Below are positions 39,274 through 64,000 of a DNA stretch of 64,000 nucleotides, piece by piece. Where the stretch lies: assembly GCA_011939005.1 (NCBI GenBank), contig GCA_011939005.1_4858.1, one strand, 5' to 3'. Both the position numbers and the translations under genes were made by a program. Position 1 is the first letter of the stretch; every line of letters begins with the position of its first letter. Source of the DNA: a phage. A model generated the notes under the pieces. That model was given only the letters and a program-made list of their open reading frames with translations. It did no database searches and was not told where the DNA came from.

Positions 39274-39297
39274 CCTCCACCCCCGAAGGGGTGGAGG
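39274..39297 (-). promoter_or_regulatory. hairpin immediately upstream of the terminase ribosome-binding site
   Basis: CCTCCACCCC-CGAA-GGGGTGGAGG with no U-run; its 3' arm abuts the terminase RBS GGAG. Confidence 0.3.
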
Positions 39298-39305
39298 AAG
39301 GTTTG

Positions 39306-40949: not shown

Positions 40950-40951
40950 GA

Positions 40952-43465: not shown

Positions 43466-43475
43466 AGTGGGCCTC

Positions 43476-44381: not shown

Positions 44382-44438
44382 GAGTATGATCCTTAGTATG
44401 ACCATCAGGTCTTTAAGACGAATATATGGAGACGTTCC

Positions 44439-46484: not shown

Positions 46485-46487
46485 TAG

Positions 46488-47363: not shown

Positions 47364-47365
47364 GA

Positions 47366-47421
47366 CAAAAAAAAACAAGCGTTACCTCTCTCCATTTGGA
47401 GAGAGGTACGTTTTATTTTTT
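47366..47421. terminator. bidirectional intrinsic terminator
   Basis: Stem CGTTACCTCTCTCC/GGAGAGAGGTACG flanked by A-run and T-run. Confidence 0.6.
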
Positions 47422-47955
47422 CGGTTGGCTAGCATCAATTTCACGCTGCGCATTAGCACGAATTAATAGGTTCTTAATTTGCAGCAGTAACAGATAAGTT
47501 ACGAGCACATCGAACTCAGACGGTGGTTGAACGTCACCTAGGTCAGGATGGGCAATCTTCCAGAGAGACATCCCGTCTTTATAACCTTGCCCCGATTCGG
47601 CCGCGAGAATGTCGTTGGCAGACATGCTAATGAGTTCGTGTTCCAGCCGACGGAGTACCTCGTCACCCAGCTCTACTTGCAACAAGCACTTAAAGCGGAT
47701 GATAAAGCCCGCGATAATACGCCCGCTACTACCTTTGGTGATCGTGTCGAGAAAACGCTGGTAGCCGTTGATGGTGTGCGGAATAATCTCAACCGGATAT
47801 TCGGCAATGGTTTCGAATGCGTCTTCCAGTATAGCTTTCATGGACAACGTAAACACGTCACCGATTTGATTGATGTGTCGAATGATGTCTTCACGTTTCA
47901 TATCAGACGGGATCGGTTTGATATCGTCCTGACCGAGAGTATTGAGTTGTTTCAT
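47413..47955 (-). CDS. hypothetical protein (180 aa)
   Basis: ORF. Confidence 0.55.
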   Translation of the reverse strand: MKQLNTLGQDDIKPIPSDMKREDIIRHINQIGDVFTLSMKAILEDAFETIAEYPVEIIPHTINGYQRFLDTITKGSSGRIIAGFIIRFKCLLQVELGDEVLRRLEHELISMSANDILAAESGQGYKDGMSLWKIAHPDLGDVQPPSEFDVLVTYLLLLQIKNLLIRANAQREIDASQPKK

Positions 47956-48011
47956 TGTAGCTCCAAAATCAAAAAAAATAGGGCAGTCATAAGACCACCC
48001 TAATGTTTTCT

Positions 48012-48374
48012 TTAGAGGAAGCCTTTTTCTTTCAAGGCTTCTTCAATGATTTCTGCAATGTGCGCAGCACGTGTTTCACCGCCGTCGGCATCAGGCCCGA
48101 ACTCTTCCGGGTCAAAATCCTGCAAGGCGTCTACGATAACTTGTTTCGCGTTTTCTGACTGTGACATGGTGTATTCCTCTCGATAAAATTTAGGATTAGC
48201 AGCAAGCGCAATAGGCGCAGGCATAGGTTTAGGGAAGGTGACGGTGAGACCGATTTCCTCGTGTGACGCAATGGTGCCATCCCAACGTAACCCAGTAGCA
48301 GGATTCACATTAGGATGGCATTCCACTTTAGCCCCGAGTAGCTCAGCGAGTTCCTTTGGGCTGGACGGAATCAT
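48012..48374 (-). CDS. hypothetical protein (120 aa)
   Basis: ORF. Confidence 0.5.
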   Translation of the reverse strand: MIPSSPKELAELLGAKVECHPNVNPATGLRWDGTIASHEEIGLTVTFPKPMPAPIALAANPKFYREEYTMSQSENAKQVIVDALQDFDPEEFGPDADGGETRAAHIAEIIEEALKEKGFL

Positions 48375-48862
48375 TATTCGTCGTCTTCGTCTTCTTCATC
48401 AGTTGCCATCATGGACTTGGCAAACTCTTTACGCAGCTTGCCTTCCAACGCTTTAGACTTCGGAGAACCGAAACCGTAAGAGATGGACGCTGCCCATTCT
48501 TTCTGAGTTGGGTTTTCAGTAACCGGGCGAGAGAACACGGTAGAGAATGCTGCGTTACCGATATCCAGCGTTAAGTCCAGTGCACCGATATCGCTATCCG
48601 CTTTCGCACGGTCAGCAATCAGACCACCGGCAATGCCACCGAACAGTTCAGTGAAGTTTGCGTCGTGCTGTCGCAGAGCGTCCGCGTCTTCCAGTGTGAA
48701 GCGATAGTCCACATCCCCAACTTTCGTTACGGGGAGTGTTTCTTCGTAAATCTTAACCAGCGGGTCGGCGTTCAGCGCCAGGTCTTCGGACAGGGTTGCT
48801 GCCGGCGTGTCCAGTTCAGCGATCAGTTTGTGCAGTGCTTTCATTGAAGTTACTTCAGCCAT
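48374..48862 (-). CDS. hypothetical protein with acidic C-terminus (162 aa)
   Basis: ORF ending ATDEEDEDDE. Confidence 0.55.
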   Translation of the reverse strand: MAEVTSMKALHKLIAELDTPAATLSEDLALNADPLVKIYEETLPVTKVGDVDYRFTLEDADALRQHDANFTELFGGIAGGLIADRAKADSDIGALDLTLDIGNAAFSTVFSRPVTENPTQKEWAASISYGFGSPKSKALEGKLRKEFAKSMMATDEEDEDDE

Positions 48863-48888
48863 CTTAATATTCCTTAAGGTCAGTGTGA

Positions 48889-49560
48889 TTAATCGTGTGA
48901 AAGACGAGCTTCGAGGTCGTCGATAATGGTATCTGTGAAATAGCTAATATCTAGCTGCTCCACGAAATCCCTGCGTTCCAGAATGCGCTCTGCGAAGAGC
49001 GTACCGTACCAACTAGGGATATTACTAATACCGTTGCGTCCGAACTTCTGTTGGACGTGACCAACGGCATGGAATTTTGCATCGCCTTTACTTTTACCCT
49101 GTTCACGGGCAAACAGATAAGAACGGTGCATGTAATTGCTCACGTCATCTACAGACGGTATACCACGGTCAGCTGCGGCAACTATCTCAGAGACAATCCC
49201 GTTGTAGTTCCCTTTGTGAGAACTGCGGTGTTCTAAGACTGCATGGGCAATCGTCAAACATTCATCATCGGTAAGTTTATACTTACGTTTGAGCACTGGC
49301 TTGTTATCCAGTATCCAGCTATACCCTTTGATGTGGTGCGACGCACGGTCTTCTTTGGTAGAGAAGATATCGTGAGCTGCCACCGCAATCAGTATCAGCT
49401 TCAGGTGTTCGGTTTGCCCAAGCATATACGCGATACGAATCGCATTTGATTTAACTGAGTTGATGTGATCCATGCGATGCGCACTATCGGTATAACGATA
49501 GAAGTCGCGGAATTGACGAACCAGTTTTTCCCAAAGTTTGTTGAGTTCAGTGCCCTGCAT
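48889..49560 (-). CDS. HD-domain phosphohydrolase-like protein
   Basis: SAHRMDHINS followed by IAVAAHDIF (H...HD signature), with later His/Asp residues. Confidence 0.4.
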   Translation of the reverse strand: MQGTELNKLWEKLVRQFRDFYRYTDSAHRMDHINSVKSNAIRIAYMLGQTEHLKLILIAVAAHDIFSTKEDRASHHIKGYSWILDNKPVLKRKYKLTDDECLTIAHAVLEHRSSHKGNYNGIVSEIVAAADRGIPSVDDVSNYMHRSYLFAREQGKSKGDAKFHAVGHVQQKFGRNGISNIPSWYGTLFAERILERRDFVEQLDISYFTDTIIDDLEARLSHD

Positions 49561-49594
49561 GTAAATATTCCTTACGGTAATGGTCGATTAACTA

Positions 49595-49984
49595 CTAAGA
49601 AAATGTGTGGTAACAACGTGTCAGTGTAACCTTCACGTTATCAGAATGGTCTTCGTTGGTATACAACACCGGCCAGATAATGTTATCAGACGAAAGCGCC
49701 TTTGATAACCCTTCAATCAATTCCTTCATTGAGGTTCCCTTCAGCCGATGGGTCGTACGCCACCTGTGTGACGTCATACGGCTATAAACCACCATATCTG
49801 GTGTAAGGGTACTACTTTCCTCTTTAATCTCCTCTAAACGCTTCTCCTCGCTTTCTACGAAGCTTAGTAAAGCATCTGGATTTCGAACAAACTCACCGAA
49901 ACGATCGTCTCGGCGCAAGCCACAAAGAACCCACAGCGTGAATGGGTCTCTGCACGCATCTACTAACCCTTCTGCGATTTTCAT
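49595..49984 (-). CDS. hypothetical protein (129 aa)
   Basis: ORF. Confidence 0.5.
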   Translation of the reverse strand: MKIAEGLVDACRDPFTLWVLCGLRRDDRFGEFVRNPDALLSFVESEEKRLEEIKEESSTLTPDMVVYSRMTSHRWRTTHRLKGTSMKELIEGLSKALSSDNIIWPVLYTNEDHSDNVKVTLTRCYHTFS

Positions 49985-50038
49985 TTTATTCCTTCCTACA
50001 CAGTCAAAGGATTTGTACGATTCGTGATTTTTGAGAGA

Positions 50039-50437
50039 TCAGATTAGCTGCTCAGCGCGCAAACGTCGCAAAGTGTTCGTTGCTGTAACCAGAACGTCCT
50101 GCAGCTCTTGCATCGCTTCACCAGTAAAGAACGCTTTAAGGTGCTGGTCGCTAGTGATGAGTCCGCCGTATTTGTACGGTAGGTCTGTAATATCACAGAC
50201 GATGGGATTTTTTGCTCGCCACGTTTCATCAGCAACAAGAATAAGAAACTTCCAGGCGTCTTGATTGCCGAGCGATTCACCGGTTTCTGGCTTGTAGAGT
50301 TCTTTTAAACGTTTATCGCGCTCGGAGATAAGGTATTCGTCATCAGTCAACAGACGAATTAAATCGGCTTCATTGCTCTCGGCTTTAGCACAAAGCATCA
50401 TGGCAACAAACGGGTCTTGGCGTAGTTGGTTAGTCAT
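50039..50437 (-). CDS. hypothetical protein (132 aa)
   Basis: AAGGAG RBS; motif copy 58 nt upstream. Confidence 0.55.
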   Translation of the reverse strand: MTNQLRQDPFVAMMLCAKAESNEADLIRLLTDDEYLISERDKRLKELYKPETGESLGNQDAWKFLILVADETWRAKNPIVCDITDLPYKYGGLITSDQHLKAFFTGEAMQELQDVLVTATNTLRRLRAEQLI

Positions 50438-50494
50438 TGTAAATACTCCTTCTGGGTAATAGTCGATTAAAGCGTTAACGTGTAACGCTCACCT

Positions 50495-50509
50495 AAGTAA
50501 TATATATCT
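50495..50509. promoter_or_regulatory. copy 8 of motif (AAGTAATATATATCT, degenerate)
   Basis: Lies between the upstream terminator-like hairpin and the start of 50039..50437. Confidence 0.35.
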
Positions 50510-50529
50510 CAGTTCTTTTTGAATGCAAT

Positions 50530-50580
50530 TAATAAAATAAAAAGGCTCACCCGTATCCGAAGATAGGATGAGCCTAGTGG
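50530..50580 (-). terminator. putative terminator hairpin after 50584..51177
   Basis: AGGCTCA...TGAGCCT stem with A-rich tract on the plus strand; long loop lowers confidence. Confidence 0.3.
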
Positions 50581-50583
50581 AGC

Positions 50584-51132
50584 TTAGACTTGCAGTAGTG
50601 TCCCCGAGTGAGTAATCGGGTCATTGTAGAACGCTTCACACTGGAGGCAAATGCCATCAATGTTCGGTTCTTCAGTTCGCGACCATATTGCCGCGCCACC
50701 TTGCAAAATCCATTCTCGACAGTTACGACCATAATCGTCGACAAGCAAATTACCTCGCGAGGCGTAAGCTTTCTTCTGCCCTGAACTTTCGGTGACGATG
50801 ACTTTGTCAGCTGGCACCCCAAAGTGCTTCATGAACCATCGTTGTTTTGAATCCACAACCAATTGGTGGTCGTAGTGATCTTCTGACCCAGAGGTGAGTA
50901 TTGCCCAACTGTCGCAAAGTCTATCTACCGTTTCCAGGATTCGCTCTACACCCTCAATTGGTTCGAGTTTGTAAAACAAGTCAGGATCGTTCTGATACAT
51001 CGAACGAACCAAACTACGACGGCGGAGTTCAGGTAATGCGTTAAACTCTTTAATCGTCATTCCGGGAAAATGTGTGGATAAAACGTATTTACGCCAGCGT
51101 GCAAAAACGCCATCGCTATCCAGATAAAACAT
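50584..51132 (-). CDS. HAD-superfamily hydrolase (nucleotidase/phosphatase-like); start revised to ATG 51132
   Basis: MFYLDSDGVF (HAD motif I DxDG) and C-terminal LLVDDYG (motif IV); AAGGA 9 nt upstream of ATG 51132. Confidence 0.5.
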   Translation of the reverse strand: MFYLDSDGVFARWRKYVLSTHFPGMTIKEFNALPELRRRSLVRSMYQNDPDLFYKLEPIEGVERILETVDRLCDSWAILTSGSEDHYDHQLVVDSKQRWFMKHFGVPADKVIVTESSGQKKAYASRGNLLVDDYGRNCREWILQGGAAIWSRTEEPNIDGICLQCEAFYNDPITHSGTLLQV

Positions 51133-51185
51133 CTTCTTGTCCTTATTTTGTTCCCCAACACATGAAACCAACGTCATGTAAAAAA

Positions 51186-51530
51186 TTACATCTGCTTTAT
51201 TGCCATATTCGAACGATACGGCTCAGTGAGTAGAAAGTAAGTACGGCGATAGTCGATTGTCACTCCAGCCTCTTTAATGTCGCAATAGAGTGCCATGATA
51301 TCTAGCGACGCGATTCCGGAGATGATGTTATTAATCTTGCGTTTTGTATCAAAACGTTCCGATAAGATTTCGGCAAGCACTTCTTTACCAGCCTTTCCTT
51401 GGATAGCGTAGATCGCTAACGCTTTCAGTTCTTCCGGCGTCAAACAACGAAGGGTCGGAGGTATTGCGATGTTAACGACCTTCATGCGTCCCCCTACTGT
51501 AGTGGTTTTTAGTTGTGATTTGCAGACCAC
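51186..51530 (-). CDS. hypothetical protein (114 aa)
   Basis: ORF. Confidence 0.5.
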   Translation of the reverse strand: MVCKSQLKTTTVGGRMKVVNIAIPPTLRCLTPEELKALAIYAIQGKAGKEVLAEILSERFDTKRKINNIISGIASLDIMALYCDIKEAGVTIDYRRTYFLLTEPYRSNMAIKQM

Positions 51531-51540
51531 GAACTAGGCA

Positions 51541-52170
51541 CTACGGTGAAACGACGTATTCGTTCAGTGCGTTATCAAAAGCAGTACGCGCAGTGGCGAC
51601 CGCCTCCGAGACCTTAACTTCACTGCGCTCCCAGTTGACGCTGATAATCAGTCGATAAAATTCGCCGGCTTTCAGCAGTTGACTGGTAGACAGGCGTACA
51701 TCTTGTCCGAAACTTAAGTGATAGACAAAAACATGGCCGCCGTTGCGAAGTTCTGACAACCGCATCTCGCCCAGGTAAATCGGTTTGATATCCCAGTTCG
51801 ACATGCGGTGTGGTACAATCCATACTTCACCCGCCCGATTCGGTTCCTGTGTCAGGTTGACCGAAGGCTGCGCTACATCACGTTCATCAAAACCGTAAAG
51901 ATACAATCGTGTGGGTATTTCGATTGCAGAGAAGTTGTGACGTGCACCCTTAATCGCTCGCTCTAAATCTACCGAGCAGCAAATCCTGGGCACGGTCTTG
52001 TCTTCATCTGGCGCGCACGAAAGTGGGATACGCGGCGAAAACGTCGGTATCTTACACTTGCTTAAATGCAGCGGCTGTTCAGTCAGTTTACGCAACGTCA
52101 ACTTTTTGGCGACGTGCGGCATCTGGCGTTCACACCACCGCTCTAATGACGGGTCGACATGTTCTGCCAT
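51541..52170 (-). CDS. hypothetical protein (209 aa)
   Basis: ORF. Confidence 0.55.
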   Translation of the reverse strand: MAEHVDPSLERWCERQMPHVAKKLTLRKLTEQPLHLSKCKIPTFSPRIPLSCAPDEDKTVPRICCSVDLERAIKGARHNFSAIEIPTRLYLYGFDERDVAQPSVNLTQEPNRAGEVWIVPHRMSNWDIKPIYLGEMRLSELRNGGHVFVYHLSFGQDVRLSTSQLLKAGEFYRLIISVNWERSEVKVSEAVATARTAFDNALNEYVVSP

Positions 52171-52172
52171 TT

Positions 52173-52976
52173 TTACCAGCTCCTTACACCCATGCCCATT
52201 ACCCGCAGATTGGACACTTTCGGAGCCAGCTGCAGGTATTCCTGCGCGAGTTGCTGGAGAGCACCACGACGGGACTCAGTGGCAACAGCGCTGGTCGTTG
52301 TCGGATTGTACAGAATGTCTTCCAACACTTGACGACTGATAGGGCGGTCGACGTAAGTGCGAGTAGATTCCTGTGCCACTTTACTACCGCGTTGAATCGC
52401 AGAGTATTTGTTACAGATTTGCAGGCCATCTTCAATAACCCAGTCAAAGGTGACCAGTTTATCGATGCGGCGTACGATAGTCGTACCCAGACGACCTTCA
52501 CGAACGATAGCACGCAGTGAGAAACACACGTTCTGATGTGGGTTCTCTAGTGCTTCCGCTAGAAGCGGACCACGTTCACGGTTAGGTTTAATCCAACCCC
52601 AGATTTCCATTACCGGCAGACCGTTACACATCTGGTCGGTCGGCTTCACTTCTACTTCGCGGATGTGCATACACACGTTACGCGTTTCGATCCATTCGTT
52701 ACGTTCGATCCACTGGGCTTCGCTCATGCCTTGTTCGTATTGCGGATGGTCTTCTTCACCGAAGAGATTCCCCGCCAAAACTTTACGCATGAAAACGTTA
52801 GAGCGCTCGAAGACATGTTTTGACTCGTTATAGGCGTAGTAAATATTCTCAGAGTTGAAAATATTCAGTGCACCTAACAGGACGTAGTAATATCCGTCCG
52901 CATCTTTCTTTAGCGTTGCCCCTTTATTGACCCCAGCGAGTGCCACGCAGTTATAACGTAGTGACAAGTTTTCCAT
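52173..52976 (-). CDS. hypothetical protein (267 aa)
   Basis: ORF. Confidence 0.6.
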   Translation of the reverse strand: MENLSLRYNCVALAGVNKGATLKKDADGYYYVLLGALNIFNSENIYYAYNESKHVFERSNVFMRKVLAGNLFGEEDHPQYEQGMSEAQWIERNEWIETRNVCMHIREVEVKPTDQMCNGLPVMEIWGWIKPNRERGPLLAEALENPHQNVCFSLRAIVREGRLGTTIVRRIDKLVTFDWVIEDGLQICNKYSAIQRGSKVAQESTRTYVDRPISRQVLEDILYNPTTTSAVATESRRGALQQLAQEYLQLAPKVSNLRVMGMGVRSW

Positions 52977-53038
52977 TGGTTTCCCCAGTTGTTATTACCG
53001 AAGCGGGTTATTGGGGACGTACAATAACCCTACCTCAG

Positions 53039-53767
53039 TTACCTCATATACAAATCCTCGAGTGGCTCTGCACGTACCGGATCGACCTGGAGTGCAGAAC
53101 GGATACCCTGTTTCAGTTCCACATCTGCAATCTTGGCCAACCGGGAAGTTTTGTTCAATGAACCTGAACGCAGCGGAATAAACTGCACCCGATTCATCAA
53201 ATCGCTGTCTTTTTTCAGGGTGTAGCGGAAATACGTCCGCGGGTCGCCAACCTTACGCTGTGTGTGGGCAGCATAACAGTCAGCGGTGATCTGGTCGTTA
53301 AAGACCGTAAAGCCGTTCCACGTCTTAGTGTCAGACAATAGCTCAGCGTCATCTACTGCGGTGTACCAGAAAGGCCGGTTTCCGAAGTCGTAGATGTACG
53401 AAGCGATGTTGTAGACTGGCGAGGAGAGCACTTGCAGCATTCGGTTGGGGAACACCACCGTGCCGGGGTCAAAACGGAACTCGTAATACGGCACACCCTG
53501 AACGTCAATTTCCTCAAACGCCGACGGGGTAATTTCAATGAACGTCGTGACGTTCGATACCCCGTAGGTTTTGCGGTCAGTGGAGATAGCGAAAATACCG
53601 ACGATTTCGACTTGCGAAGAAATTACCGCCAGCTCTTTAGCCACGAAGCCAACAGGGATGTAAATGTAACATCCCCCTTTGGTGATGGTGGCCGTGCCTT
53701 GGTCCACTAAATCTGCATGAATTTTCGTCGCGTCACGACGTGCTGTTTCAATGGCGCTCACGACCAC
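53039..53767 (-). CDS. hypothetical protein (242 aa)
   Basis: ORF. Confidence 0.6.
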   Translation of the reverse strand: MVVSAIETARRDATKIHADLVDQGTATITKGGCYIYIPVGFVAKELAVISSQVEIVGIFAISTDRKTYGVSNVTTFIEITPSAFEEIDVQGVPYYEFRFDPGTVVFPNRMLQVLSSPVYNIASYIYDFGNRPFWYTAVDDAELLSDTKTWNGFTVFNDQITADCYAAHTQRKVGDPRTYFRYTLKKDSDLMNRVQFIPLRSGSLNKTSRLAKIADVELKQGIRSALQVDPVRAEPLEDLYMR

Positions 53768-53776
53768 CTCTCTTTA

Positions 53777-55252
53777 TTAAACTTTGCTCGGTACAGAAAT
53801 AACCACACCGCCACAAATCCAATCCAGGACGTAGTTAATCATCCAGTCGGTTGCCACCTCGTCAGGTTGACGGTTAGCAATCATACCACGATGAATATCC
53901 AGCATCAGCTTGGACAGTTCGTATTCGCCGAAGACCTCAGTCGCGGAGACTTTGATAACGAACTCAGTGATGTCTGTGGTGTCGGTTGTGAAGAACGAAT
54001 CGATGAAGCTTGCCGTTGATTTCTTAACGAACTCCGGCGTTGCTACCTGACCGTCCTGTCCACGCCAGAACAGTTCAGGATCGGTCGCATCGATAGCCAC
54101 GTTAAACGCTTGTTTCAGTGACTGGCGATTACGTGTTACCCAATTGCTGTCGAGTTTAGCACGCTGAATCGCAGAACGGTGCCCCCAGGCAGCGATGTAG
54201 TCTTTCTGTTTTTCCAACAATGAAGCTACACGCGTGGAGACATTGGTGTCACCTTCGTCCAGCTGGTAAATAGCACCCAGTAACGCTTCAACGCTACCGC
54301 CTTTTTCCAGATAGTCGTCCATCACTTCCTGACAGATATACACTTTCTTCTCAACGTTGTCGTATCCGAAGACAATGTTACCGGTCTTGATGCGGGTAAC
54401 GATGTTCTGGGTGTAGGCGTAAACCCAACCGATATAGCTGTAATGTAATGGCAGCATCTGTGCTTTCCACTGCCCGCTATTCAGACCAGAGTCTTTCCAC
54501 GGCATTTCCAGGTAGTAGCCAGAAAGCAGCATAAACAGAATGTTGCGTTTCAGGTTGTGTGGTGCCTGGTCGCTTACCGGAGAGAGCATGTTCCCTTCGA
54601 GCATGTTGCGAACGGCTTCGTTGATATTCCAACCCAGCGCATTCAACAGTTCTTTAACCAGATCGTCGTATGCTTTGCTGCCGGTTTCTGGCAGTTCGAT
54701 ATCGGCAGGGACGTTAGCTTTAACCGCAGGGTGTGTGGTACCGTTACCCAGCGGGTTTTCTACCGAATCAATTAATGCCTGTACCACCGGGGAGTTCAGC
54801 GCCGGGTCCATACCTGCAGGCACAAGTGCCCATTCTTCGCTAACTGCCTGGTTTTCAATACCCTGGTTGTTTTGGATAACCAGCTGAACAAACGGCTGAA
54901 TAACGTTACGAGCAAAGTCAAGCATACCCTGACAACGCTGGATAGCCATACGCTTCAGTTCAAACAGCGTTGGTTCGTGGTCTTCGACGTTCAGCGTTTC
55001 TGGACCCGCTGCCGTGTCCGCGATTACGGACGCTTCGCCTGTACCGGCCTGCGGCGTTTTCAGTGCAGTGATATCCGGCAGAGACTGGAAGAACTCTTCG
55101 TCGGTTATCTGCGTATCGAAAACGCTCTGCTGCGTAGTCGCTTTTGTCAGTAGACCAACAGGACTGTCAACGTCAGCTTCCAAACGAACCTGGTGTTGTT
55201 TCGCCAGTTTCATTGCGTTGGTGACAGCATTAAGTGAATATAAGTTGATCAT
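53777..55252 (-). CDS. hypothetical protein (491 aa)
   Basis: Long ORF. Confidence 0.6.
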   Translation of the reverse strand: MINLYSLNAVTNAMKLAKQHQVRLEADVDSPVGLLTKATTQQSVFDTQITDEEFFQSLPDITALKTPQAGTGEASVIADTAAGPETLNVEDHEPTLFELKRMAIQRCQGMLDFARNVIQPFVQLVIQNNQGIENQAVSEEWALVPAGMDPALNSPVVQALIDSVENPLGNGTTHPAVKANVPADIELPETGSKAYDDLVKELLNALGWNINEAVRNMLEGNMLSPVSDQAPHNLKRNILFMLLSGYYLEMPWKDSGLNSGQWKAQMLPLHYSYIGWVYAYTQNIVTRIKTGNIVFGYDNVEKKVYICQEVMDDYLEKGGSVEALLGAIYQLDEGDTNVSTRVASLLEKQKDYIAAWGHRSAIQRAKLDSNWVTRNRQSLKQAFNVAIDATDPELFWRGQDGQVATPEFVKKSTASFIDSFFTTDTTDITEFVIKVSATEVFGEYELSKLMLDIHRGMIANRQPDEVATDWMINYVLDWICGGVVISVPSKV

Positions 55253-55542
55253 GCCTGACCCCCGTTTTTGGTGCTGATGGAATCCTGGATGCGACCAGTA
55301 ATACGCGCACCCACCATATCAGCGATGTCTCGTTTCAGCAAACGCTGATCGCCCATGCGGTCAGACAGGCCATTGCTGCCCTTCAGCAGTCCGTGAATAA
55401 TTTCGGTGGCCAATTCAACCGCATTGCCCAGAACAACAAAGTTCATGCGTTGCTGTGGGGAATAACCTTCCGTTTCCGGATTCGTGCTATTACGGCCCAC
55501 CGGAATCCCATGCTGCTGCTTGAGCGTATCTAAAATTCCCAT
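55249..55542 (-). CDS. hypothetical protein (97 aa)
   Basis: ORF with GGAG RBS; hairpin upstream. Confidence 0.5.
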   Translation of the reverse strand: MGILDTLKQQHGIPVGRNSTNPETEGYSPQQRMNFVVLGNAVELATEIIHGLLKGSNGLSDRMGDQRLLKRDIADMVGARITGRIQDSISTKNGGQA

Positions 55543-55566
55543 TATTAACTCCGGAGTTTATTTACC

Positions 55567-55585
55567 GGGCGGGAGCGACCCGCCC
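55567..55585 (-). other. intergenic hairpin between the beta-like gene and the next gene
   Basis: GGGCGGG-AGCGA-CCCGCCC, no U-run. Confidence 0.3.
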
Positions 55586-55589
55586 TACA

Positions 55590-58500
55590 TTAGTTGATTT
55601 TAGCCGGCAAGGCTGGGACGTCTTCACCATCTAAGATGCGTCCGATATTCTCCCCACCACGATACCCGACAGCGTTGGTGGTTCCGATGCGCATGATAGA
55701 ACCTACGATACGTGCGTCGACGGAATCACGACCAAAGATAATGTCGAGTTCCTGCCCGTCTTCCGTTTTGTTGGTTCCATACATCACTTCCTGAACCGTC
55801 GTTTTCAGCTGGTTAGCAATAACCATCTTATCCGCTGCTGCCATCTCTACCCGGTGTGTGATGTAGAATCGGACACACAGGCTATTGTACGCTAACGGCA
55901 CCCCCTCAACACGAAAATCACCGTTGACTCGACCGTCCTTCGGCTCGTCACGTTTGAGAGCCAGCGCAGTCTTCCGACGTATACGGTCGTATTTACGAAC
56001 CATCTCCGCCAAAGACGGGGTCATATCTTCCACCTCGCCGTGGTAAACCACTTCGATTTTGTCGATAAACCCACGAACACCAGAGCGTGGTGCAAAGGAG
56101 CTTAACTCACGCAGCGTTTCCGCTGCTTCTTTACTGAACCCGCTCATATCGCCGGTCAGGTTGTCGGTGAAGGTGCATAGAATTGAATCCACGTCTACGT
56201 GGTCCCCTTCTTTTACCATCTCCAACAGGTTCTGGGTAAACGTCATTGTGACTTCTTTGAGTTTGGTAACATCGGCTTCAGCCTTAGCAGCGAACCGCTC
56301 ACTAATGGCGTTGGAGTCCTCAATTACTTCTTCCCCTTCAATCAAAGCGACAGTTGCCAGTATCCCGTTTTTAAAACTGACCTGCGTTGGATCGTAGATG
56401 TCTGGTTCAAAGTGTTGTTCGTTGTACGTGATAACGGCACCGGCAGGGAGTTTATCTCCGCGCTTCCATTTCGTTACCAGGGTGTGTGGGTAGTAAGTCC
56501 CTTCGTGTGGACCGAACCAACGGCCCAGTGGGAAAGCTTCTTCCTCTCCGTCGTCGTATTTGATTTTAACGTGGTCGTTAAGAACCTCCACAATCTTGCC
56601 TGGTTTATCGATTACGCGTGCGTGCTTCACAGAAGTACGGTGTGCCACGAACTTTTCTTGCTCGGTACGATACGGTGTGGTGGTTGCGCCAACACAACTG
56701 GTCGCAGAACCGAATTGAATCCCAACGAAGTTCTGACGCTTAGCATCGTCCATCAGGGTATCCGGCACCAAGCCATCAATAAATGACAGTGCCTCACCTG
56801 GCTTCAGTTTATCGAGGTCCTTTTTAAAGGTCGTGCCGTCCACGGTGTCGTAACGCGGATTGTTTGTTGCAAAGGCGGTGATACCTACGTCGCCGTTATC
56901 GACCGTGTTACCGGAGATAATCCCCAGGTCGCTCGGTTGGAATTCACGGGTACTGTATACCATGGTTTTGCGGTTACGACCACCTGTACCGCCCATGGTA
57001 ACGACATCTTTTTCTTTGATGTTCTGTACCGGGTTTGCGCCAGGAGCCAGCAGAACAGACGGGTCGGAGTTAATTGCACCCCACACCATGTCCTGCGTCA
57101 ACTCAAACTTACGATTTGAGTTAGGCGCGTTGTTGTAGTTACGCATCGCCCGCACCATCGCGGTGTAGATGTGATACGAAATACGTTGGTTCCCGATGAA
57201 CATCATTTCGTCACCGTTAATTTCCGGTAACGTGTGGTCCGTCTGCAGCAGTTCGTTAGAACGCTCCAGTAAGCCGATAAAGGTTTCCGGCTCGCCCATT
57301 TTCCTGAGGATACGCGCGTGCATGTCATCAACAAATGCGGTCCGCATCAGTTTCAGCTCTTTGATGTAGCGTGGTGTTAGCCCATCTGCATCGCGTAACA
57401 GGTTCAGATAAATGTCTTCCCGGTCAACTTCCGACTCGGTATACGTGGTAAAGTGTTTGATGTAACGGTCTAAGCCGTTGACAATCATCCTCTGTTGATC
57501 GTTCTCGCAGACAATTGCAATTTTCGCATCCTGGAGACGAATAATGGAGTCGAACTGACCTTTATCGATACGTTGTCCGACAGAGAGAACCTCGTAACTG
57601 ATACCAAAGTGTTTCAACATCCCGGTTAACCCGAGATAGTACGAAAACACAAAGCCCAGCGAGATTGATTTGCCCATCAGTGACAGTTCGGTCATTTCTC
57701 GTGGAGCCTTAGAGGTGTCCACGCCAAAGACCTCGGCGAGTGTACCCAGTGGTTCGGTCTTATCCTTATCCACTCGATAAAGCTGGGAGTTTTTATCCAT
57801 ACCGACGATGACATGACTCCGCGGTTTCTTCGCCACAGGTACCAGCTCGACACGGTCCGCGTCTGCCAGTTGCCCTTCGTTAAAGAATGCCGCTTTCTGT
57901 TTAATGTCAAAGTTCCATTGGTACCCAATTGCGTTGAACGCTGCTACACGACGTGCCACCTCGGTGTACTGACGCGGCAGTTTAGACAGCGGATCGAACA
58001 CATTCGCCAGTTTTGCATCAGTGATTTCGGTGTTCTTTGGATCGACCGCGCGAGTAATAATCGCATTAGTGAGCCAACGTCCGTAATCATTGACGACTTT
58101 ATCACTGCGACGGACAAAGTTCTTCCCGTAGGCAGTGGTTAACGCTACAGTATCGTGGGACACTTTACGGATAGGAAGATCAACGCGCTGACGACGCATT
58201 GTATATTCTACACCATTCGCAACCCAAGTACCGTCTTCGGTTAATGCAGGAATTGAGAAACGTACCGTGGTTGGTTCTCCGCCAATCGGCTGAATACGCA
58301 ACGTGTGGTGTTCGATATTCCCGGTAACGGAAATCTCTTTCTCGACAGTGTGATTGTGAATCGCTAAACCAAGACGTTGGGATGACGCTACTGCCCCCAG
58401 AATATCTTTCGGGAAGATTTCCTGGTTGTACTGACGAATGATTTGGTCGGTGGTATTTTCCGCCCAGGCTTCATCCGTAACTAAGCGTTCAATCTTCTTA

Positions 58501-59795
58501 GGCTCGGCTTTAACTTCGAGTTTCTTAGGATCGATGGTCAGACCTTCGCCGTACGTCTCTTTAGGATTGTACGGGTTGGGTAAGTTTACGAAACGTTTAG
58601 AAGATTCGTTCAGGAACTGATACGCTTTGGCGGTGACGCGGCCCGCTTCTGCCAGGCGCTCAACTTCCTGTTTAATCACAGCATCGTGTGGGATGGTGCG
58701 TTCTACGACGATGGTGGTTGGTTTGACATCTTCTTTCGGCGCTTCGATGACCAGATCTTCTTTCTCATCGAACTCATGATCGTTCAATATATCGTCAACG
58801 TTGTCGCTTTGTGTTGCTTCATCGTCGACGATATCGAGGGTTTCTTCCGGTTTACTGGCAACGGCTTCAACAACATCGTCGTCCTCTCCCAGATGTACGC
58901 GTTCGTCCCCTTCCGGTGTAACGAACTCGTCATCTTCGTAGTCGGTAGACGGCGGTGTGGTCATCACAGTAGTCAGTGTACGGTAGAACATTCTGCCCAT
59001 CTGCACGTCAGTCAAACGACCGCCGGCAGACTTACGCATTCTTTCAATTACACCCATGTTCATGGATGTAAAACCACCGTTGTGCGTGAAGATAAAGTTC
59101 ACACGTGACAGCTGGTTCATGTCCATACCGTCAAACAGGGTTGCTTGCTGATCGCCGTAAGCCCAACCGAACAGTTCCAGTAACCACAGCAGGTTAAAGT
59201 CCTTAAAGCGCTCCAGTTTGGTTTTAACACGATCGTTATACGTCATTTTAAAACGATCGAAAGAAGGCAGTACGTTACCCAGTTCGATGATGTAGTAGTT
59301 CTGACGCATGTACTCACGTGAGTCAGTTTTCATCTGGTTAGTTATCAGCAGCTGAATGTTGTGCAGACGTTCGTACCAGGACATCAGAGTATCAGGGTAG
59401 AAATAATGCGGCAGCATCGGGGTGTAGTTTTCGATGAGCAGCACTTTCGGATCTGAACGCACCACACCATCTTCAATCATGCGACGAATACGACGGTTGT
59501 TACGATGGTACTGGAAGATTTGACGTTCTTGGCCAACAACAGGTTTCTTACGCGGATGGCCAATAATGCCGTCTTCAGGTAGCTGGAAGTGATGGCGAAT
59601 CATCGCCGGTTTTTCCAGCTGGCCAAAACACGGTGTAGTTAACGGCGGCGCTAAAACCACCTGGTCTAAATCGATGGTGTGGTAGATAGAACCACGTGGG
59701 AGCTGGAGCTTCTCCAGCGGGATAATACGCGGACGACCGAACTCATCGGTCTTGCGCACGGTAAAGCGCTGGTTAAACTGTTTCAGAAAAATCAT
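55590..59795 (-). CDS. multisubunit RNA polymerase beta-like subunit (1401 aa)
   Basis: GTWVANGVEY (compare beta GTFVINGTER), GGTGGRNRK...TVDNGDVGI (compare GPGGLTRER...ETPEGPNIGL), KRGDKLPAGAVIT (compare GDKMAGRHGNKGVIS), in the same N-to-C order as bacterial beta; directly downstream of a beta-prime-like gene. Confidence 0.5.
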   Translation of the reverse strand: MIFLKQFNQRFTVRKTDEFGRPRIIPLEKLQLPRGSIYHTIDLDQVVLAPPLTTPCFGQLEKPAMIRHHFQLPEDGIIGHPRKKPVVGQERQIFQYHRNNRRIRRMIEDGVVRSDPKVLLIENYTPMLPHYFYPDTLMSWYERLHNIQLLITNQMKTDSREYMRQNYYIIELGNVLPSFDRFKMTYNDRVKTKLERFKDFNLLWLLELFGWAYGDQQATLFDGMDMNQLSRVNFIFTHNGGFTSMNMGVIERMRKSAGGRLTDVQMGRMFYRTLTTVMTTPPSTDYEDDEFVTPEGDERVHLGEDDDVVEAVASKPEETLDIVDDEATQSDNVDDILNDHEFDEKEDLVIEAPKEDVKPTTIVVERTIPHDAVIKQEVERLAEAGRVTAKAYQFLNESSKRFVNLPNPYNPKETYGEGLTIDPKKLEVKAEPKKIERLVTDEAWAENTTDQIIRQYNQEIFPKDILGAVASSQRLGLAIHNHTVEKEISVTGNIEHHTLRIQPIGGEPTTVRFSIPALTEDGTWVANGVEYTMRRQRVDLPIRKVSHDTVALTTAYGKNFVRRSDKVVNDYGRWLTNAIITRAVDPKNTEITDAKLANVFDPLSKLPRQYTEVARRVAAFNAIGYQWNFDIKQKAAFFNEGQLADADRVELVPVAKKPRSHVIVGMDKNSQLYRVDKDKTEPLGTLAEVFGVDTSKAPREMTELSLMGKSISLGFVFSYYLGLTGMLKHFGISYEVLSVGQRIDKGQFDSIIRLQDAKIAIVCENDQQRMIVNGLDRYIKHFTTYTESEVDREDIYLNLLRDADGLTPRYIKELKLMRTAFVDDMHARILRKMGEPETFIGLLERSNELLQTDHTLPEINGDEMMFIGNQRISYHIYTAMVRAMRNYNNAPNSNRKFELTQDMVWGAINSDPSVLLAPGANPVQNIKEKDVVTMGGTGGRNRKTMVYSTREFQPSDLGIISGNTVDNGDVGITAFATNNPRYDTVDGTTFKKDLDKLKPGEALSFIDGLVPDTLMDDAKRQNFVGIQFGSATSCVGATTTPYRTEQEKFVAHRTSVKHARVIDKPGKIVEVLNDHVKIKYDDGEEEAFPLGRWFGPHEGTYYPHTLVTKWKRGDKLPAGAVITYNEQHFEPDIYDPTQVSFKNGILATVALIEGEEVIEDSNAISERFAAKAEADVTKLKEVTMTFTQNLLEMVKEGDHVDVDSILCTFTDNLTGDMSGFSKEAAETLRELSSFAPRSGVRGFIDKIEVVYHGEVEDMTPSLAEMVRKYDRIRRKTALALKRDEPKDGRVNGDFRVEGVPLAYNSLCVRFYITHRVEMAAADKMVIANQLKTTVQEVMYGTNKTEDGQELDIIFGRDSVDARIVGSIMRIGTTNAVGYRGGENIGRILDGEDVPALPAKIN

Positions 59796-59813
59796 ACATG
59801 TGCCTTATGGGTA

Positions 59814-61427
59814 TCATTTCAACAGCGCAGCAGTCGTTCTTTTAATCACGTTGTTAACCGGATTGATTTTGAAACTGCCGTCTGTTGCAAACCAGTAGTT
59901 TTTCGAACTGACCCACTTCCGATTTTCCTCGAGCGCTTCGGTTGACATCGGGCAGTTTGCTGAGCCGGTGTCACCATCGTAGTCACCACCCAATCCACCT
60001 AATCGGGATGGATGTGGTGCCATGGATTCCACAAAGGTTTTCACGGTACGGTCAGGGAAACTAATTGCACCCTTCTCTTTTAACGTGACCCAATCGTCTT
60101 CCAGTTCATGCAAATAGAGGGAAGAAGTGGTGGTCTCCAATCTTATGGTCGAGGAGTAAGTCGAACCGCGTCCCGTAACCGGATAACGCGTGATGAACGA
60201 GAAGTAGTCATTCCAAATATCGTAACCTGACAAATAGAGGAGTTCTGCTAAGCTCAGTCCGCGGACAAGCTTACGGTCACGTCCTTCCGGCAGGTCTTCA
60301 ATATCGTAAAAGATTTTGAAGCTGCGTTTGTCTTGGTAGATTAATGCCACGTAATGGTCCGGATCAATCATCAGCGGTTTATGTCGAAGCTCGCGCGCTT
60401 CCATTCTGTTGATGAGTGTTTCGATGCCATCGTCGGTAGTGAAAAGGTCATACACCCGCCCGGAGACTTCCAGGAACTCACGCTTGAGTGTTTTGGTGTT
60501 AACGCCGTATAAGTTGCCGTCCCCTGCCCGGATGTTACTGAGGTAACGTTCACGGATGTGGTATTGCGCCACAGGCAGTAATGCCTTCAGGGTTTGGTAC
60601 AAACCGATACGGGTATCCGTTGGACGAATCGCATCTTCGCGACCCATGACCTTGGAACCGGTTGAGAATGAAGACAGCACGTTACGCGTACCGTTCATTA
60701 ATTTACGTGACGTCACTTTACGACGTGCAAAACCACCTTTACCGTCTTGGATGTTGAAGAAGTACATCCAGATGTCATTAAAGGTTTGTTGGAGCTTCCA
60801 GCGAACCGGGTCAGTCAGTTCCGTTCGCGTACTGCGGTCGGGGATTGCACGTGCCAGAGAAATCAGACGGCGGTAGAGTCCGCCAATCTCTTCTTCTTGG
60901 TCGCGGCCATCCTGACGAATGACCAAATCACGTAATCCTGCAGGCAGAACCAGCACATAGCGGCTGAGACTGACCGGACGGAACTTATTGAAGAAATCGA
61001 CTGTCTCGTCGCGACGCATCGACTCGTTGCGTCCCGGAGTCAGTTGTTCGTAGTAGCGTAGGAAGAAGTTGAAGCCGGTGTCTGCACCTTTATCACTGGG
61101 CAGAGCCGGCTCGAAATCTTTTTCTTTCTCATTCCAGATAGCGAATCGCTTCCCGGAACAGATTTCTTCGTACAGCTGTTTCAGCTGGAACAGTGCCAAA
61201 CAAACGGTCGGCGAAATGATATCCAGTTTGATATCAATGTACGAGAACGTTGAGTCTCGTGCCTCGCTCCCTGTGAGGCCAAATATTTCGGTTGAATACA
61301 GTCCTTCAGGGTGAAAGTTTTTCGTCAGTCCCTGAAAGGTGTCTGTTGTTGTAACTGGTTTTAAATGCGACACCAGGGACTTGTTGACGTTTAACAAGTA
61401 AAAGTCAACCCAGTTTAGCTTTCTCAC
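59814..61427 (-). CDS. multisubunit RNA polymerase beta-prime-like N-terminal subunit (intronless paralog)
   Basis: EGLYSTEIFG (compare DGLFCEKIFGP), LPAGLRDLV...GGLYRRLISLA (compare IPPDLRPLV...DLNDLYRRVINRN), catalytic GDYDGDT (compare NADFDGD); ends about 40 aa after the catalytic motif. Confidence 0.7.
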   Translation of the reverse strand: MRKLNWVDFYLLNVNKSLVSHLKPVTTTDTFQGLTKNFHPEGLYSTEIFGLTGSEARDSTFSYIDIKLDIISPTVCLALFQLKQLYEEICSGKRFAIWNEKEKDFEPALPSDKGADTGFNFFLRYYEQLTPGRNESMRRDETVDFFNKFRPVSLSRYVLVLPAGLRDLVIRQDGRDQEEEIGGLYRRLISLARAIPDRSTRTELTDPVRWKLQQTFNDIWMYFFNIQDGKGGFARRKVTSRKLMNGTRNVLSSFSTGSKVMGREDAIRPTDTRIGLYQTLKALLPVAQYHIRERYLSNIRAGDGNLYGVNTKTLKREFLEVSGRVYDLFTTDDGIETLINRMEARELRHKPLMIDPDHYVALIYQDKRSFKIFYDIEDLPEGRDRKLVRGLSLAELLYLSGYDIWNDYFSFITRYPVTGRGSTYSSTIRLETTTSSLYLHELEDDWVTLKEKGAISFPDRTVKTFVESMAPHPSRLGGLGGDYDGDTGSANCPMSTEALEENRKWVSSKNYWFATDGSFKINPVNNVIKRTTAALLK

Positions 61428-61456
61428 TTTTAAGCTCCTGAATTGGAAGAAACATT

Positions 61457-64000
61457 ATGGCAAAAAGAGGCAAAGACGGTTTCGATGATATCGATTTAGA
61501 TAGACTCGACGACTGGGATGATTTCGGTGAACCACCCCGTCCCAAAGACGAGAAAAAACGAAGCCCGATACTCAGTACCCTGAATGTTGCCAGGAAGTCG
61601 GCGTTGTCAACTATCTGGCCAGAAGGGAAACGCGACCAAGTTATCCTCAAGGGGATGCCTAAGCCGGCAGCTGATGCATACGAGGGTTATCAGTCAGCGG
61701 CAGCTGCAGCAAAGGACATTTACGCCCATACGAAAGGGGAGCTTGAGAAGACCGAGCGCACGCTGAAGATGCAAGCGCGCCAACTCGGTCCGACGATGAA
61801 GAAATACTTGCCGGATGCAGTTACTAAGCGCTTCGACAAGTGGTCAAAATCTGACCAGTTAGATTACCAGAACTACGATCCGAATCAGGCATTGATGGAT
61901 CGTGAACTGGGCGACGTATTCTCAGGTGTGCCAAAGGACGCCGACGAACAACGTCAGCTGCAGGACCGCATGGTAGAGGATAAGCTCCGCGACAGCATCA
62001 AAGAGATGCGCGCGGATGCAATGCACCAAACCATGATTGGAATGGCGAAGGACATTAACCTGTTAACCGGGTTAAGCCGTGGGGTATTCTTAAACATCGA
62101 GCGTAAGAAACTCGAATTGCAATACCGTACCCTGTTCGCCATTCAAGACATCGTGAAGATGAAGCAGTCGGAGTTCGATCGTAACACGCCTGCTTTAGAA
62201 GCCATCGTGAAGAACACGGCGCTGCCAGACTACGCGAAGGAAGATTTCTCAGAAGTCCGTTGGGCAAACGTTAAACGCCAGGCTGCGGAATGGATGAACC
62301 CATTGCGTTATGCTGACGGGTTTATGGACATGATTCGCGAAAATACCAAGAAGAAAATTTCTGGTATATTTGGCGAAGGTCGTGGTTTGTTAGAGTCTGT
62401 TCTCGGCATGGGTGTTGAAGACGATTTCGGCATGAGCGATAGCTCTTCGTTGACTGCCGAACGTCGCAAAACAAATGCTCGAGATAAAGCAACTGCATGG
62501 GGTAGCGGATTCCTTGCGAAGAAACTACTCGGCCCACAAATCGAGAAACTCCAGAAATGGACTCGTGAGGAGATGGAGAAAAATCCAGAGGTCATGAAAC
62601 GCCTGCAGAAGGGCGCGTTCACCTTTGGTAATCTTTCCTCTATCTCGAACTCAGCTATCGCAGGCGAAACGCAAGGACCGTTGGCGGATTTGTTCCGGGT
62701 ATTGAATGAACTCGGTATTGTCCAACCGTTAAACCGTGAGAAAGCCTTCCTTGACGAACGTAATGGCGAAACGTTAAGCCGTTCGGCGAAATTTGACCGT
62801 AAAGCATATCTTAGCCTGGTTGAAGTTATTCCTGCCTGGCTGGCAGAGATTAACAAATCTGTTCGTCGGGGTTATGGCGAACATGCCGACCTGGAATACG
62901 ACATCACTAGTCGTGGGTTCGTAGACCGTAAAGTGGTCGGTAACCGCGTACGCAAGGCGGTTGCAAACGATGAACAACGCCTGCGTCTCCAAAATTCCAT
63001 TAACAGCACTGTGGATTTTGTTGACCGCGGCAAAACGCTCTCGCAGAAGGATCGACAGCATCTCGCCGACTATATCGAGTCGCGAGCCTCGCAGGGCCGC
63101 GCATTCGACGTAGAAGCGATTCTGAAAGACCCGATGCATCTTCATCGGTATATGCCAGGAAACGCCGCAGAACGCATTAAGGAAGCGTTACAGGGGCATT
63201 CTGATAGCTTGGTCGGCGGTAGCAACGAATTAAGTAACGAGCTGGCCCGCAAAATCTCCACAGTGCAGTCATCTATCACCCAACGTCAGGCAATTATCGA
63301 CGAGGCGGTGAATATTTACGGTGAGCGAGCATTGCGCGATGCGGGTATCTTTAACTACGACGCGAAGAGTGACACTTTCGGCGTGGATAAAGACCTGTCC
63401 GATCCCTATACCTTGTTTAATGACTTGGCGATGGGCAAGACACGCAGCGGGCGTGCATTGACTCGTGACCAGGAGATTCAACGTAAGCTGCAAAATGGTT
63501 CGGCGTTAGGCGACTATCTGCGCCGAATGAACCAAGGGGCAAGTGGTGGTGCCGATGACACGTCGTTGCCGCCGGCTTTACGTGGCGGTGGTAAAGGCCG
63601 CGGAATGTCGCCTCGGCAGTTAGCCGCAGTTCTCTACGGTGAAACCTCGACTAACTTTGTTGAATTGTTGAGTCAACGTAACCGTGGCGAAGAAGCACCA
63701 CGGAATAACTTTGACGGTATCATCGAAGCGATTCGGGGTAATAACAACAGTGACACCCTCCAGAAAATTCTGGAACACGTCAGAAGTATGGACGAAGAAG
63801 GGGTTCTCCTGGCTTCGTTAGCAGGGGGTGCTGGTTCTGGTGACGAAGAGATGGGACCACCTCGTCCTGGTGGTGGTAGCGGTGGCGGTAAACGCCGCCG
63901 TATTATCATCGGTGAGGATGGGCTTATTCGTCGTTGGGGCGGTGTGTTGTTCGACACTGCAGCAGGAATCGGTGGCTTTGCAAAACGTGGTGTTAAAGGT
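61457..64000 (+). CDS. hypothetical large protein, 5' portion (ORF continues past window end)
   Basis: Frame open from ATG 61457 (MAKRGKDGFDDIDLDRLDDW...) to the window end with no stop seen on hand translation; Gly-rich segments near the end; not in ORF track because no stop lies in the window. Confidence 0.5.
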   Translation, partial: MAKRGKDGFDDIDLDRLDDWDDFGEPPRPKDEKKRSPILSTLNVARKSALSTIWPEGKRDQVILKGMPKPAADAYEGYQSAAAAAKDIYAHTKGELEKTERTLKMQARQLGPTMKKYLPDAVTKRFDKWSKSDQLDYQNYDPNQALMDRELGDVFSGVPKDADEQRQLQDRMVEDKLRDSIKEMRADAMHQTMIGMAKDINLLTGLSRGVFLNIERKKLELQYRTLFAIQDIVKMKQSEFDRNTPALEAIVKNTALPDYAKEDFSEVRWANVKRQAAEWMNPLRYADGFMDMIRENTKKKISGIFGEGRGLLESVLGMGVEDDFGMSDSSSLTAERRKTNARDKATAWGSGFLAKKLLGPQIEKLQKWTREEMEKNPEVMKRLQKGAFTFGNLSSISNSAIAGETQGPLADLFRVLNELGIVQPLNREKAFLDERNGETLSRSAKFDRKAYLSLVEVIPAWLAEINKSVRRGYGEHADLEYDITSRGFVDRKVVGNRVRKAVANDEQRLRLQNSINSTVDFVDRGKTLSQKDRQHLADYIESRASQGRAFDVEAILKDPMHLHRYMPGNAAERIKEALQGHSDSLVGGSNELSNELARKISTVQSSITQRQAIIDEAVNIYGERALRDAGIFNYDAKSDTFGVDKDLSDPYTLFNDLAMGKTRSGRALTRDQEIQRKLQNGSALGDYLRRMNQGASGGADDTSLPPALRGGGKGRGMSPRQLAAVLYGETSTNFVELLSQRNRGEEAPRNNFDGIIEAIRGNNNSDTLQKILEHVRSMDEEGVLLASLAGGAGSGDEEMGPPRPGGGSGGGKRRRIIIGEDGLIRRWGGVLFDTAAGIGGFAKRGVKG

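Follow-up and report, generated by a model that had tools for sequence, protein, structure and literature searches.

Split RNA polymerase genes in an SPN3US-like jumbo phage: an intronless beta-prime-N gene and its beta-like neighbour as probable virion polymerase subunits

Which RNA polymerase is encoded by an intronless beta-prime-like gene and its beta-like neighbour, when a second beta-prime-like gene is present in the same phage? The question is raised by a 64,000-nucleotide (nt) stretch of phage DNA (GenBank assembly GCA_011939005.1, contig GCA_011939005.1_4858.1; here called the window), in which a gene for a protein of 537 amino acids (aa), resembling the N-terminal part of beta-prime (beta-prime-N), lies beside a gene for a beta-like protein of 1401 aa, and a further beta-prime-N gene is interrupted by an intron (Table 1). 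An earlier note on this DNA proposed that these genes belong to the split virion and non-virion polymerases of phiKZ-like phages, which is borne out by profile and structure comparisons, synteny, and the literature, but held that sequence does not allow the two copies to be told apart. That proved too cautious, as orthology (SPN3US gp240/phiKZ gp180 for one copy, phiKZ gp55 for the other) and gene order assign both. The 537-aa and 1401-aa proteins are very probably the beta-prime-N and beta (or beta-N) subunits of the virion-packaged RNA polymerase of an SPN3US-like phage. Genes of this kind make transcription in nucleus-forming jumbo phages independent of the host and insensitive to rifampicin, as established earlier in phiKZ, AR9, and SPN3US, and both genes are already known, having been characterised experimentally as virion polymerase in SPN3US. 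The value for the window is thus one of correct annotation, in that the two beta-prime-N copies are assigned, the intron boundaries are placed, and six polymerase-related genes are recognised rather than three.

With 98–99% DNA identity to published phages, the window is recognisable from its sequence as part of an SPN3US-like (Seoulvirus, Chimalliviridae) jumbo phage genome. All of it maps onto SPN3US in reverse, spanning the arbitrary genome ends, such that window 1..11185 corresponds to SPN3US 30252..19072 and window 33225..64000 to SPN3US 240413..209788. A megablast search with the 5.8-kb region containing the 537-aa and 1401-aa genes returned 63 phage records, 42 of which cover at least 80% of the query, 34 of them at 95% identity or more; the high-identity records are all Seoulvirus (SPN3US-like) jumbo phages of Salmonella, E. 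coli, or Proteus, with EC001 at 99.1% and SPN3US at 98.1% DNA identity over this region. A 241.7-kb contig that carries the label Salmonella enterica serovar Enteritidis also encodes a protein identical to the 537-aa product.

The two genes are on the same strand with 18 nt between them, and correspond to open reading frames (ORFs) SPN3US_0240 and SPN3US_0241 of the original SPN3US record, the intron-containing gene being SPN3US_0023. SPN3US gp240/gp241 (Thomas et al. 2016, PMC5105663) are the same genes, with the same lengths (537 and 1401 aa), the same 18-nt spacing, and the same neighbours, i.e. the giant tail-fibre gene gp239 oriented divergently and gp242–gp245 downstream. The 537-aa protein is 99.8% identical to gp240, and all 11 nt differences are synonymous; the 1401-aa gene has 98 differing codons, 82 of them synonymous and 16 nonsynonymous. 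Over both genes there are 110 nucleotide substitutions, with 93 synonymous and 16 nonsynonymous differences, and the 16 amino-acid changes are all in the 1401-aa protein. A length of 519 aa is given for gp240 in the published SPN3US table, but the 537-aa start is better supported, both by the GenBank ORF and by the first 20 residues being conserved among homologues.

When compared by BLASTP with the phiKZ proteins, the 537-aa and 1401-aa proteins match gp180 (33% identity, expectation value (E) 3e-76) and gp178 (29% identity over 1448 columns) and no others; the alignment is near full length for gp178 and extends to the annotated end for gp180. The gene order also agrees. In phiKZ it is gp181 (a giant tail protein, divergent), gp180, gp179, gp178, gp177.1, gp177, gp176, and gp175 (head protease), and the window has a giant tail protein gene, beta-prime-N, beta, two small genes, a gp176-like gene, and a head protease gene. 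The 267-aa protein encoded at 52173..52976 pairs with the protease gp175 by BLASTP; the gp242-like and gp243-like proteins gave no BLASTP match to phiKZ gp177.1 and gp177.

Published experiments place these orthologues in virions. SPN3US virions were shown by mass spectrometry to contain gp240, gp241, gp42, gp218, and gp244, gene 241 is essential, and particles of a gene-241 amber mutant lose all five proteins (PMC5105663). PhiKZ gp180 is a virion protein present at ~10 copies per particle, which is injected and co-precipitates gp178, gp80, and gp149 (PMC10612078). From this orthology and gene order, together with the published SPN3US and phiKZ virion experiments, we infer that the 59814..61427/55590..59795 pair encodes virion polymerase subunits.

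Evidence that the 537-aa protein is a beta-prime fragment comes from both profile and structure comparisons. It matches phrog_2986 (an RNA-polymerase family) over its full length (E 2.9e-238). A family profile built from 31 sequences, with identities down to 37%, matches the AR9 beta-prime chain 7s01_d in the PDB (E 7.7e-13), plastid and cyanobacterial split beta-prime/gamma chains (E 1e-10), and E. coli beta-prime at residues 211–357 plus the DFDGD segment (E 3e-8). An AlphaFold model (predicted local distance difference test (pLDDT) score 81.5) was compared with the PDB using Foldseek, and the best 50 matches are all of beta-prime type (beta-prime, cyanobacterial gamma, and plastid rpoC1), the best being 7s01_d (E 5.4e-13). 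This chain, the beta-prime-N of the non-virion polymerase of Bacillus phage AR9 (PDB 7S00/7S01 chain d), is the best solved match by both profile and fold, and is a ~430-aa fragment that also ends soon after the DxDGD motif, although identity to the 537-aa protein is only 14%; the AR9 enzyme is the non-virion polymerase of a uracil-DNA phage, unlike the virion enzyme assigned here. Cyanobacterial gamma and plastid rpoC1, both products of a split beta-prime, are among the top structural matches; according to a review, phage beta-prime is split after the barrel at the same place as in cyanobacteria (PMC7598289). DYDGD occupies residues 482–486, 51 residues before the C-terminus, and in the intron-containing copy the motif lies 70 residues before the end, so that both fragments do end shortly after DxDGD as described previously. 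Among the 31 homologues D482 is invariant and D484 and D486 are at least 90% conserved.

The 1401-aa protein matches phrog_3148 (an RNA-polymerase family) over its full length (E 0, 1969 bits). Its family profile of 24 sequences matches T. thermophilus RpoB (1iw7_C, E 1.6e-11) in four colinear segments; we take these to represent an NG..QxxR element at the N-terminus, the fork loop, the DD region, and the lysines of the barrel. The sequences GGTGGRNR at 935, DD at 1016–1017, ED at 1159–1160, and DK..K at 1322–1331 are conserved, with G936/G939/R940, D1016, E1159/D1160, and D1322/K1323/K1331 invariant in the family. A model of residues 403–1401 (pLDDT 85.2, predicted template-modelling score (pTM) 0.83) has only beta chains among its best 50 Foldseek matches in the PDB, the top one being 8w8o_C (E 3.5e-26, template-modelling score (TM) 0.51). 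The N-terminal ~400–480 residues have no counterpart in cellular beta, and the remainder spans beta through its double-psi barrel, barrel included. Both phage proteins thus have the two-barrel catalytic core of bacterial RpoB/RpoC and the same order of conserved segments at 12–14% identity, and differ from the cellular subunits in lacking Pfam-level similarity to them and in the extra ~400-residue N-terminus of the phage beta. The SPN3US authors proposed that this N-terminal extension targets the polymerase to the head (PMC5105663). Within it, residues ~285–360 of the 1401-aa protein are strongly acidic and poorly conserved (DYEDDEF...EDDDVVEAV...DDEATQSDNVDD...).

Several results weigh against these assignments. 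A Pfam scan of all the polymerase pieces gave no RpoB/RpoC domain, and single-sequence phmmer searches of the PDB with the 537-aa and 1401-aa proteins gave E 0.3 or worse; because of these failures, recognition as a polymerase depends on family profiles and structure prediction. The profile check suggested in the earlier note thus came out differently by method, in that Pfam models detect none of the subunits and family profiles match solved beta and beta-prime. A profile of the gp244-like family (69 sequences), whose SPN3US member is a proposed beta-prime piece, gave no beta-prime among its PDB matches, only spurious ones to pentatricopeptide repeats. Finally, the function of both genes in the source phage is transferred by orthology, and virion presence and injection are known for the SPN3US and phiKZ orthologues only.

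One alternative is that the assignment is reversed, the 59814..61427/55590..59795 pair encoding the non-virion enzyme and the intron-containing gene the virion enzyme. The only opening for this lies in the divergence of the two beta-prime-N copies, which is too great for direct comparison, and we found no support for a reversal. The spliced intron-containing product matches the solved non-virion phiKZ gp55 (7ogp_A, PHIKZ055, E 5.1e-39) and its gene sits in the order gp55...SbcD...gp68...gp71-74, whereas the intronless copy matches phiKZ gp180 and has the giant tail protein gene on one side and the head-protease module on the other, an arrangement shared with phiKZ; moreover, the SPN3US orthologue of the intronless copy was detected in virions (PMC5105663). 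As the phiKZ non-virion enzyme consists of gp55, gp68, gp71-73, gp74, and gp123 (PMC8287921), the match to gp55 identifies the intron-containing gene as the predicted non-virion catalytic beta-prime-N, orthologous to SPN3US gp23 and phiKZ gp55, and a reversal is highly improbable. The comparison with phiKZ subunits suggested earlier therefore separates the copies, gp180/gp178 being matched by the pair and gp55 by the intron-containing product. The description of the two copies as paralogous stands in a weaker form: compared directly they are unrecognisable as relatives (BLASTP E 0.33, confined to the DxDGD neighbourhood; hhalign probability 4%), and their paralogy is inferable only through cellular beta-prime, to which both are linked.

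Two other explanations concern whether the genes encode functional polymerase subunits. The proteins could be head structural or ejection proteins of polymerase descent that have lost RNA polymerisation, and their extreme divergence from cellular subunits in structural alignments (12–14% identity) might be taken in that sense, as might the low confidence of the model in the active-site loop (residues 480–486), the presence of just three cysteines (76, 90, 492) in the 537-aa protein without the N-terminal cluster (CSLDC...CKCPTC) that the non-virion copy keeps, and the lack of a solved virion-polymerase chain among the PDB matches, none being closer than the AR9 non-virion beta-prime. However, homologues with identities as low as 22–37% show no or almost no variation at the DxDGD aspartates, the GG..R of the fork loop, the DD and ED motifs, or the two lysines of the barrel, synonymous differences from SPN3US outnumber nonsynonymous ones 93 to 16, and SPN3US gene 241 is essential (PMC5105663). 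Furthermore, phiKZ infection does not depend on the polymerase of the host, and early transcription has been ascribed to the enzyme that is injected (literature including PMC10612078). We regard loss of activity as very unlikely, though less so than a reversed assignment. That the motifs are fortuitous and the genes not polymerase subunits at all is the least probable explanation, of negligible likelihood; the empty Pfam scan and the poor single-sequence PDB searches would fit it, but it is refuted by profile matches to solved beta and beta-prime at E 1e-11 to 1e-13 with colinear multi-segment alignments, and by Foldseek (probability 1.00, E down to 3.5e-26, with only polymerase chains among the best matches). 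Conserved catalytic residues and mostly synonymous differences indicate functional genes under purifying selection rather than chance motifs.

With the pair as virion polymerase subunits, a course of infection can be proposed by orthology. The 537-aa and 1401-aa subunits would combine with other, small subunits (the gp244-like protein, and homologues of gp42 and gp218 encoded elsewhere in the genome). Assembly of the enzyme and its packing into the head would take place late, and after injection together with the DNA it would transcribe early genes without the host polymerase, and these presumably include the non-virion polymerase genes, as shown for phiKZ. The non-virion enzyme, as in phiKZ, would then transcribe middle and late genes inside the phage nucleus. 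PhiKZ-like phages are described as having no alpha or omega homologues (literature including PMC8287921). The virion polymerase is an open structural target, to which the window adds nothing specific, no solved subunit having turned up in the PDB copy searched.

The GTG of the 537-aa gene has a Shine-Dalgarno sequence, AGGAG, 7 nt upstream, and 29 nt (61428..61456) separate this GTG from the ATG of the divergent plus-strand neighbour, the giant tail-fibre gene (gp239 orthologue), which continues past the window end. With a gap of only 29 nt, promoters of one or both divergent genes must lie inside coding sequence or further upstream. In a scan of 52000..62500 sigma-70 promoter-like sites were rarer than in shuffled sequence, and terminator-like sites were at chance level. 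The scarcity of promoter-like sites is consistent with independence from host polymerase, as expected for such a phage.

Table 1. Predicted polymerase-related features of the window, with the intron and its endonuclease gene.
Feature	Position in window	Strand	Description
Virion beta-prime-N gene	59814..61427	-	537 aa, GTG start; intronless; orthologue of SPN3US gp240 / phiKZ gp180
Virion beta-like ('beta-N') gene	55590..59795	-	1401 aa, ATG start; orthologue of SPN3US gp241 / phiKZ gp178
gp244-like virion protein gene (candidate)	53039..53767	-	242 aa; phrog_2926 'virion structural protein' E 1.3e-94; orthologue of phiKZ gp176
Non-virion beta-prime-N exon 1	12590..13957	-	Residues 1-456, ends ...KMANG; phrog_2987 profile positions 1-417
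Non-virion beta-prime-N exon 2	10958..11185	-	DFDGDQ... to stop, 75 aa; phrog_2987 profile positions 418-477, E 1e-16
Putative group I intron	11186..12589	-	1404 nt; splits catalytic motif between NG and DFDGD; absent from SPN3US
HNH-NUMOD homing endonuclease gene	11532..12530	-	332 aa; intron-encoded, free-standing ORF; Pfam, phrog_59
gp68-like subunit gene	4760..6394	-	544 aa; orthologue of SPN3US gp30 / phiKZ gp68
Non-virion beta fragment	1..1239	-	First 413 codons; gene leaves window start; orthologue of SPN3US gp34 / phiKZ gp71-73

The six polymerase-related genes of the window (Table 1) comprise three of the virion set (beta-prime-N, beta-N, and the gp244-like candidate) and three of the non-virion set (beta-prime-N, the gp68-like gene, and the truncated beta fragment). 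The initial report of two polymerase sets thus holds in that genes of both enzymes are present, but neither set is complete, as the counterparts of SPN3US gp42, gp218, gp35, and gp77 map outside the window. On the other hand, the intronless beta-prime-N gene beside a beta-like gene was described correctly: the ORFs are present as given, with PHROG, PDB-profile, and structure matches.

The gp244-like gene is located 2 kb downstream of the polymerase pair, and its product is 30% identical to phiKZ gp176 (E 3.5e-32). The complementary subunits described for SPN3US are gp218 (beta-C), gp42 (beta-prime-M), and gp244 (beta-prime-C) (PMC5105663), gp244 being proposed as the C-terminal-most beta-prime piece on published genetic evidence together with a weak match in HHpred (Thomas et al. 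2016, PMC5105663). Approximately 6 kb from the virion polymerase genes, 48889..49560 (minus strand) encodes an orthologue of the SPN3US 'putative HD domain protein' gp251, in which Pfam finds no HD domain. Fusion of an HD domain to the virion beta-C subunit has been reported in Bacillus jumbo phages (PMC7598289).

The non-virion genes are recognised by comparison with the phiKZ non-virion polymerase (PDB 7OGP/7OGR), whose chains A, B, and C are matched by the three genes of this set; it is the paralogous enzyme and not the one to which the 537-aa/1401-aa pair belongs. Removal of the intron gives a 531-aa product with DFDGD at residues 457–461, which is colinear with the intronless SPN3US gp23, in agreement with the earlier description of this gene as intron-split. 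The 544-aa protein matches 7ogp_B (PHIKZ068) by phmmer (E 1.3e-6, residues 47–435 against 41–413) and phiKZ gp68 by BLASTP (E 7.5e-14), and occupies the same place in the order SbcD...gp68-gp69-gp70-beta; it is the probable fifth, sigma-like promoter-binding subunit of the non-virion polymerase. The truncated beta fragment matches phrog_3295 (RNA polymerase beta, E 2.1e-126) and 7ogp_C (PHIKZ071, E 1.6e-5), and maps to SPN3US gp34.

Directly upstream of the non-virion beta-prime-N gene is a gene for a 617-aa protein (14040..15893, minus strand), an orthologue of SPN3US gp22 belonging to phrog_8316 (function unknown). Its position is that of the phiKZ gene for chimallin (gp54), the protein of the nuclear shell, but there was no BLASTP, phmmer-PDB, or Pfam match, and we did not adopt an identification resting on synteny.

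The intron of the non-virion gene begins after an exon 1 that ends ...GGT, placing a U before the 5′ splice site, and itself ends ...ACAG with a final G. The Rfam group I model Intron_gpI (RF00028) aligns at 11562..11234 and scores 47 bits, a little short of its gathering score of 50 (E 1.9e-10 when 1.6 kb was searched); at gathering thresholds Rfam reports two tRNA matches and no intron in the whole window. The 332-aa endonuclease has a Pfam NUMOD1 match (E 7.8e-15), an HNH_3 match of 20 bits that is under its cut-off, and a match to phrog_59 HNH endonuclease (E 3.4e-29). It is 29% identical to phiKZ gp56 and 25% identical to gp179, the intron endonucleases of the phiKZ beta-prime-N genes.

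PhiKZ offers a parallel, both of its beta-prime-N genes being interrupted beside the DFDGD codons by introns that contain HNH endonucleases (gp180/gp179, at 36159..39259 of the piece phiKZ 150000-199999, and gp55/gp56/gp56.1, at 17924..20762 of the piece phiKZ 30000-79999). Since the introns interrupt both genes, the annotated gp180 and gp55 ORFs represent exon 1 only. Gene 180 is interrupted within its catalytic motif, between GAD and FDGD, by the intron with HNH endonuclease gp179, whereas the virion copy in the window is uninterrupted; in gene 55, too, an HNH-containing intron lies beside the DFDGD codons, and the window intron is one codon further 3′, between NG and D as compared with between N and AD. 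When translated, the two phiKZ introns resemble each other in their 3′ parts.

Most close relatives of the source phage lack the intron, and there is no insert in SPN3US and most SPFM phages. The full insert is also present in SaP7 and Proteus phage 7, and a core-only insert is found in six relatives (EC001, Lh1B, SPLA3, SPLA5c, JN03, and phage 1252); that of EC001 is a 356-nt endonuclease-less intron at the same junction, 78% identical to the 3′ core of the window intron. The intronless site in SPN3US gp23 is ATAAAGATGGCAAATGGAGATTTCGATGGTGAC. Compared with this allele, the window has six synonymous differences, all at most 16 nt away from the insertion site (flanks 12590..12606 and 11169..11185), and the flanking 74 and 78 nt beyond them are identical to SPN3US. 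Such clustered synonymous changes at an insertion site are a typical homing-site signature.

In Seoulvirus genomes that are otherwise 95–99% identical, the non-virion beta-prime-N gene is thus found in three forms, namely without an intron, with an intron of 356 nt that lacks the endonuclease, and with one of 1404 nt that encodes HNH-NUMOD. It is possible, if rather doubtful, that the endonuclease serves as a weapon of interference competition between co-infecting SPN3US-like phages, in the manner of PhiPA3 gp210 against phiKZ; gp210 is a related intron endonuclease that acts in competition between co-infecting phages (PMC11620839). The putative target would be the active-site codons of the non-virion gene, and the intronless virion copy would not obviously be cut, its motif being GGDYDGD and not NGDFDGD. 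We found no description of this Seoulvirus intron polymorphism in the literature searched. Intron polymorphism among near-identical phages is only a mildly new point, being a new instance of a known phenomenon.

Two segments of the window are absent from SPN3US. One, 17264..17919, is associated with a 223-aa ORF (17250..17921, minus strand) without a Pfam match; the other, 30842..31979, is associated with two overlapping minus-strand ORFs of 177 aa (30941..31474) and 191 aa (31408..31983), also without a Pfam match. Two minus-strand tRNA matches are located at 29313..29382 and 30737..30812. One is a tRNA-Trp (CCA) on which ARAGORN and Rfam agree, and the second is a tRNA-like sequence with a shortened anticodon loop, reported by Rfam only (37.7 bits), that corresponds to the SPN3US feature 'tRNA-OTHER'.

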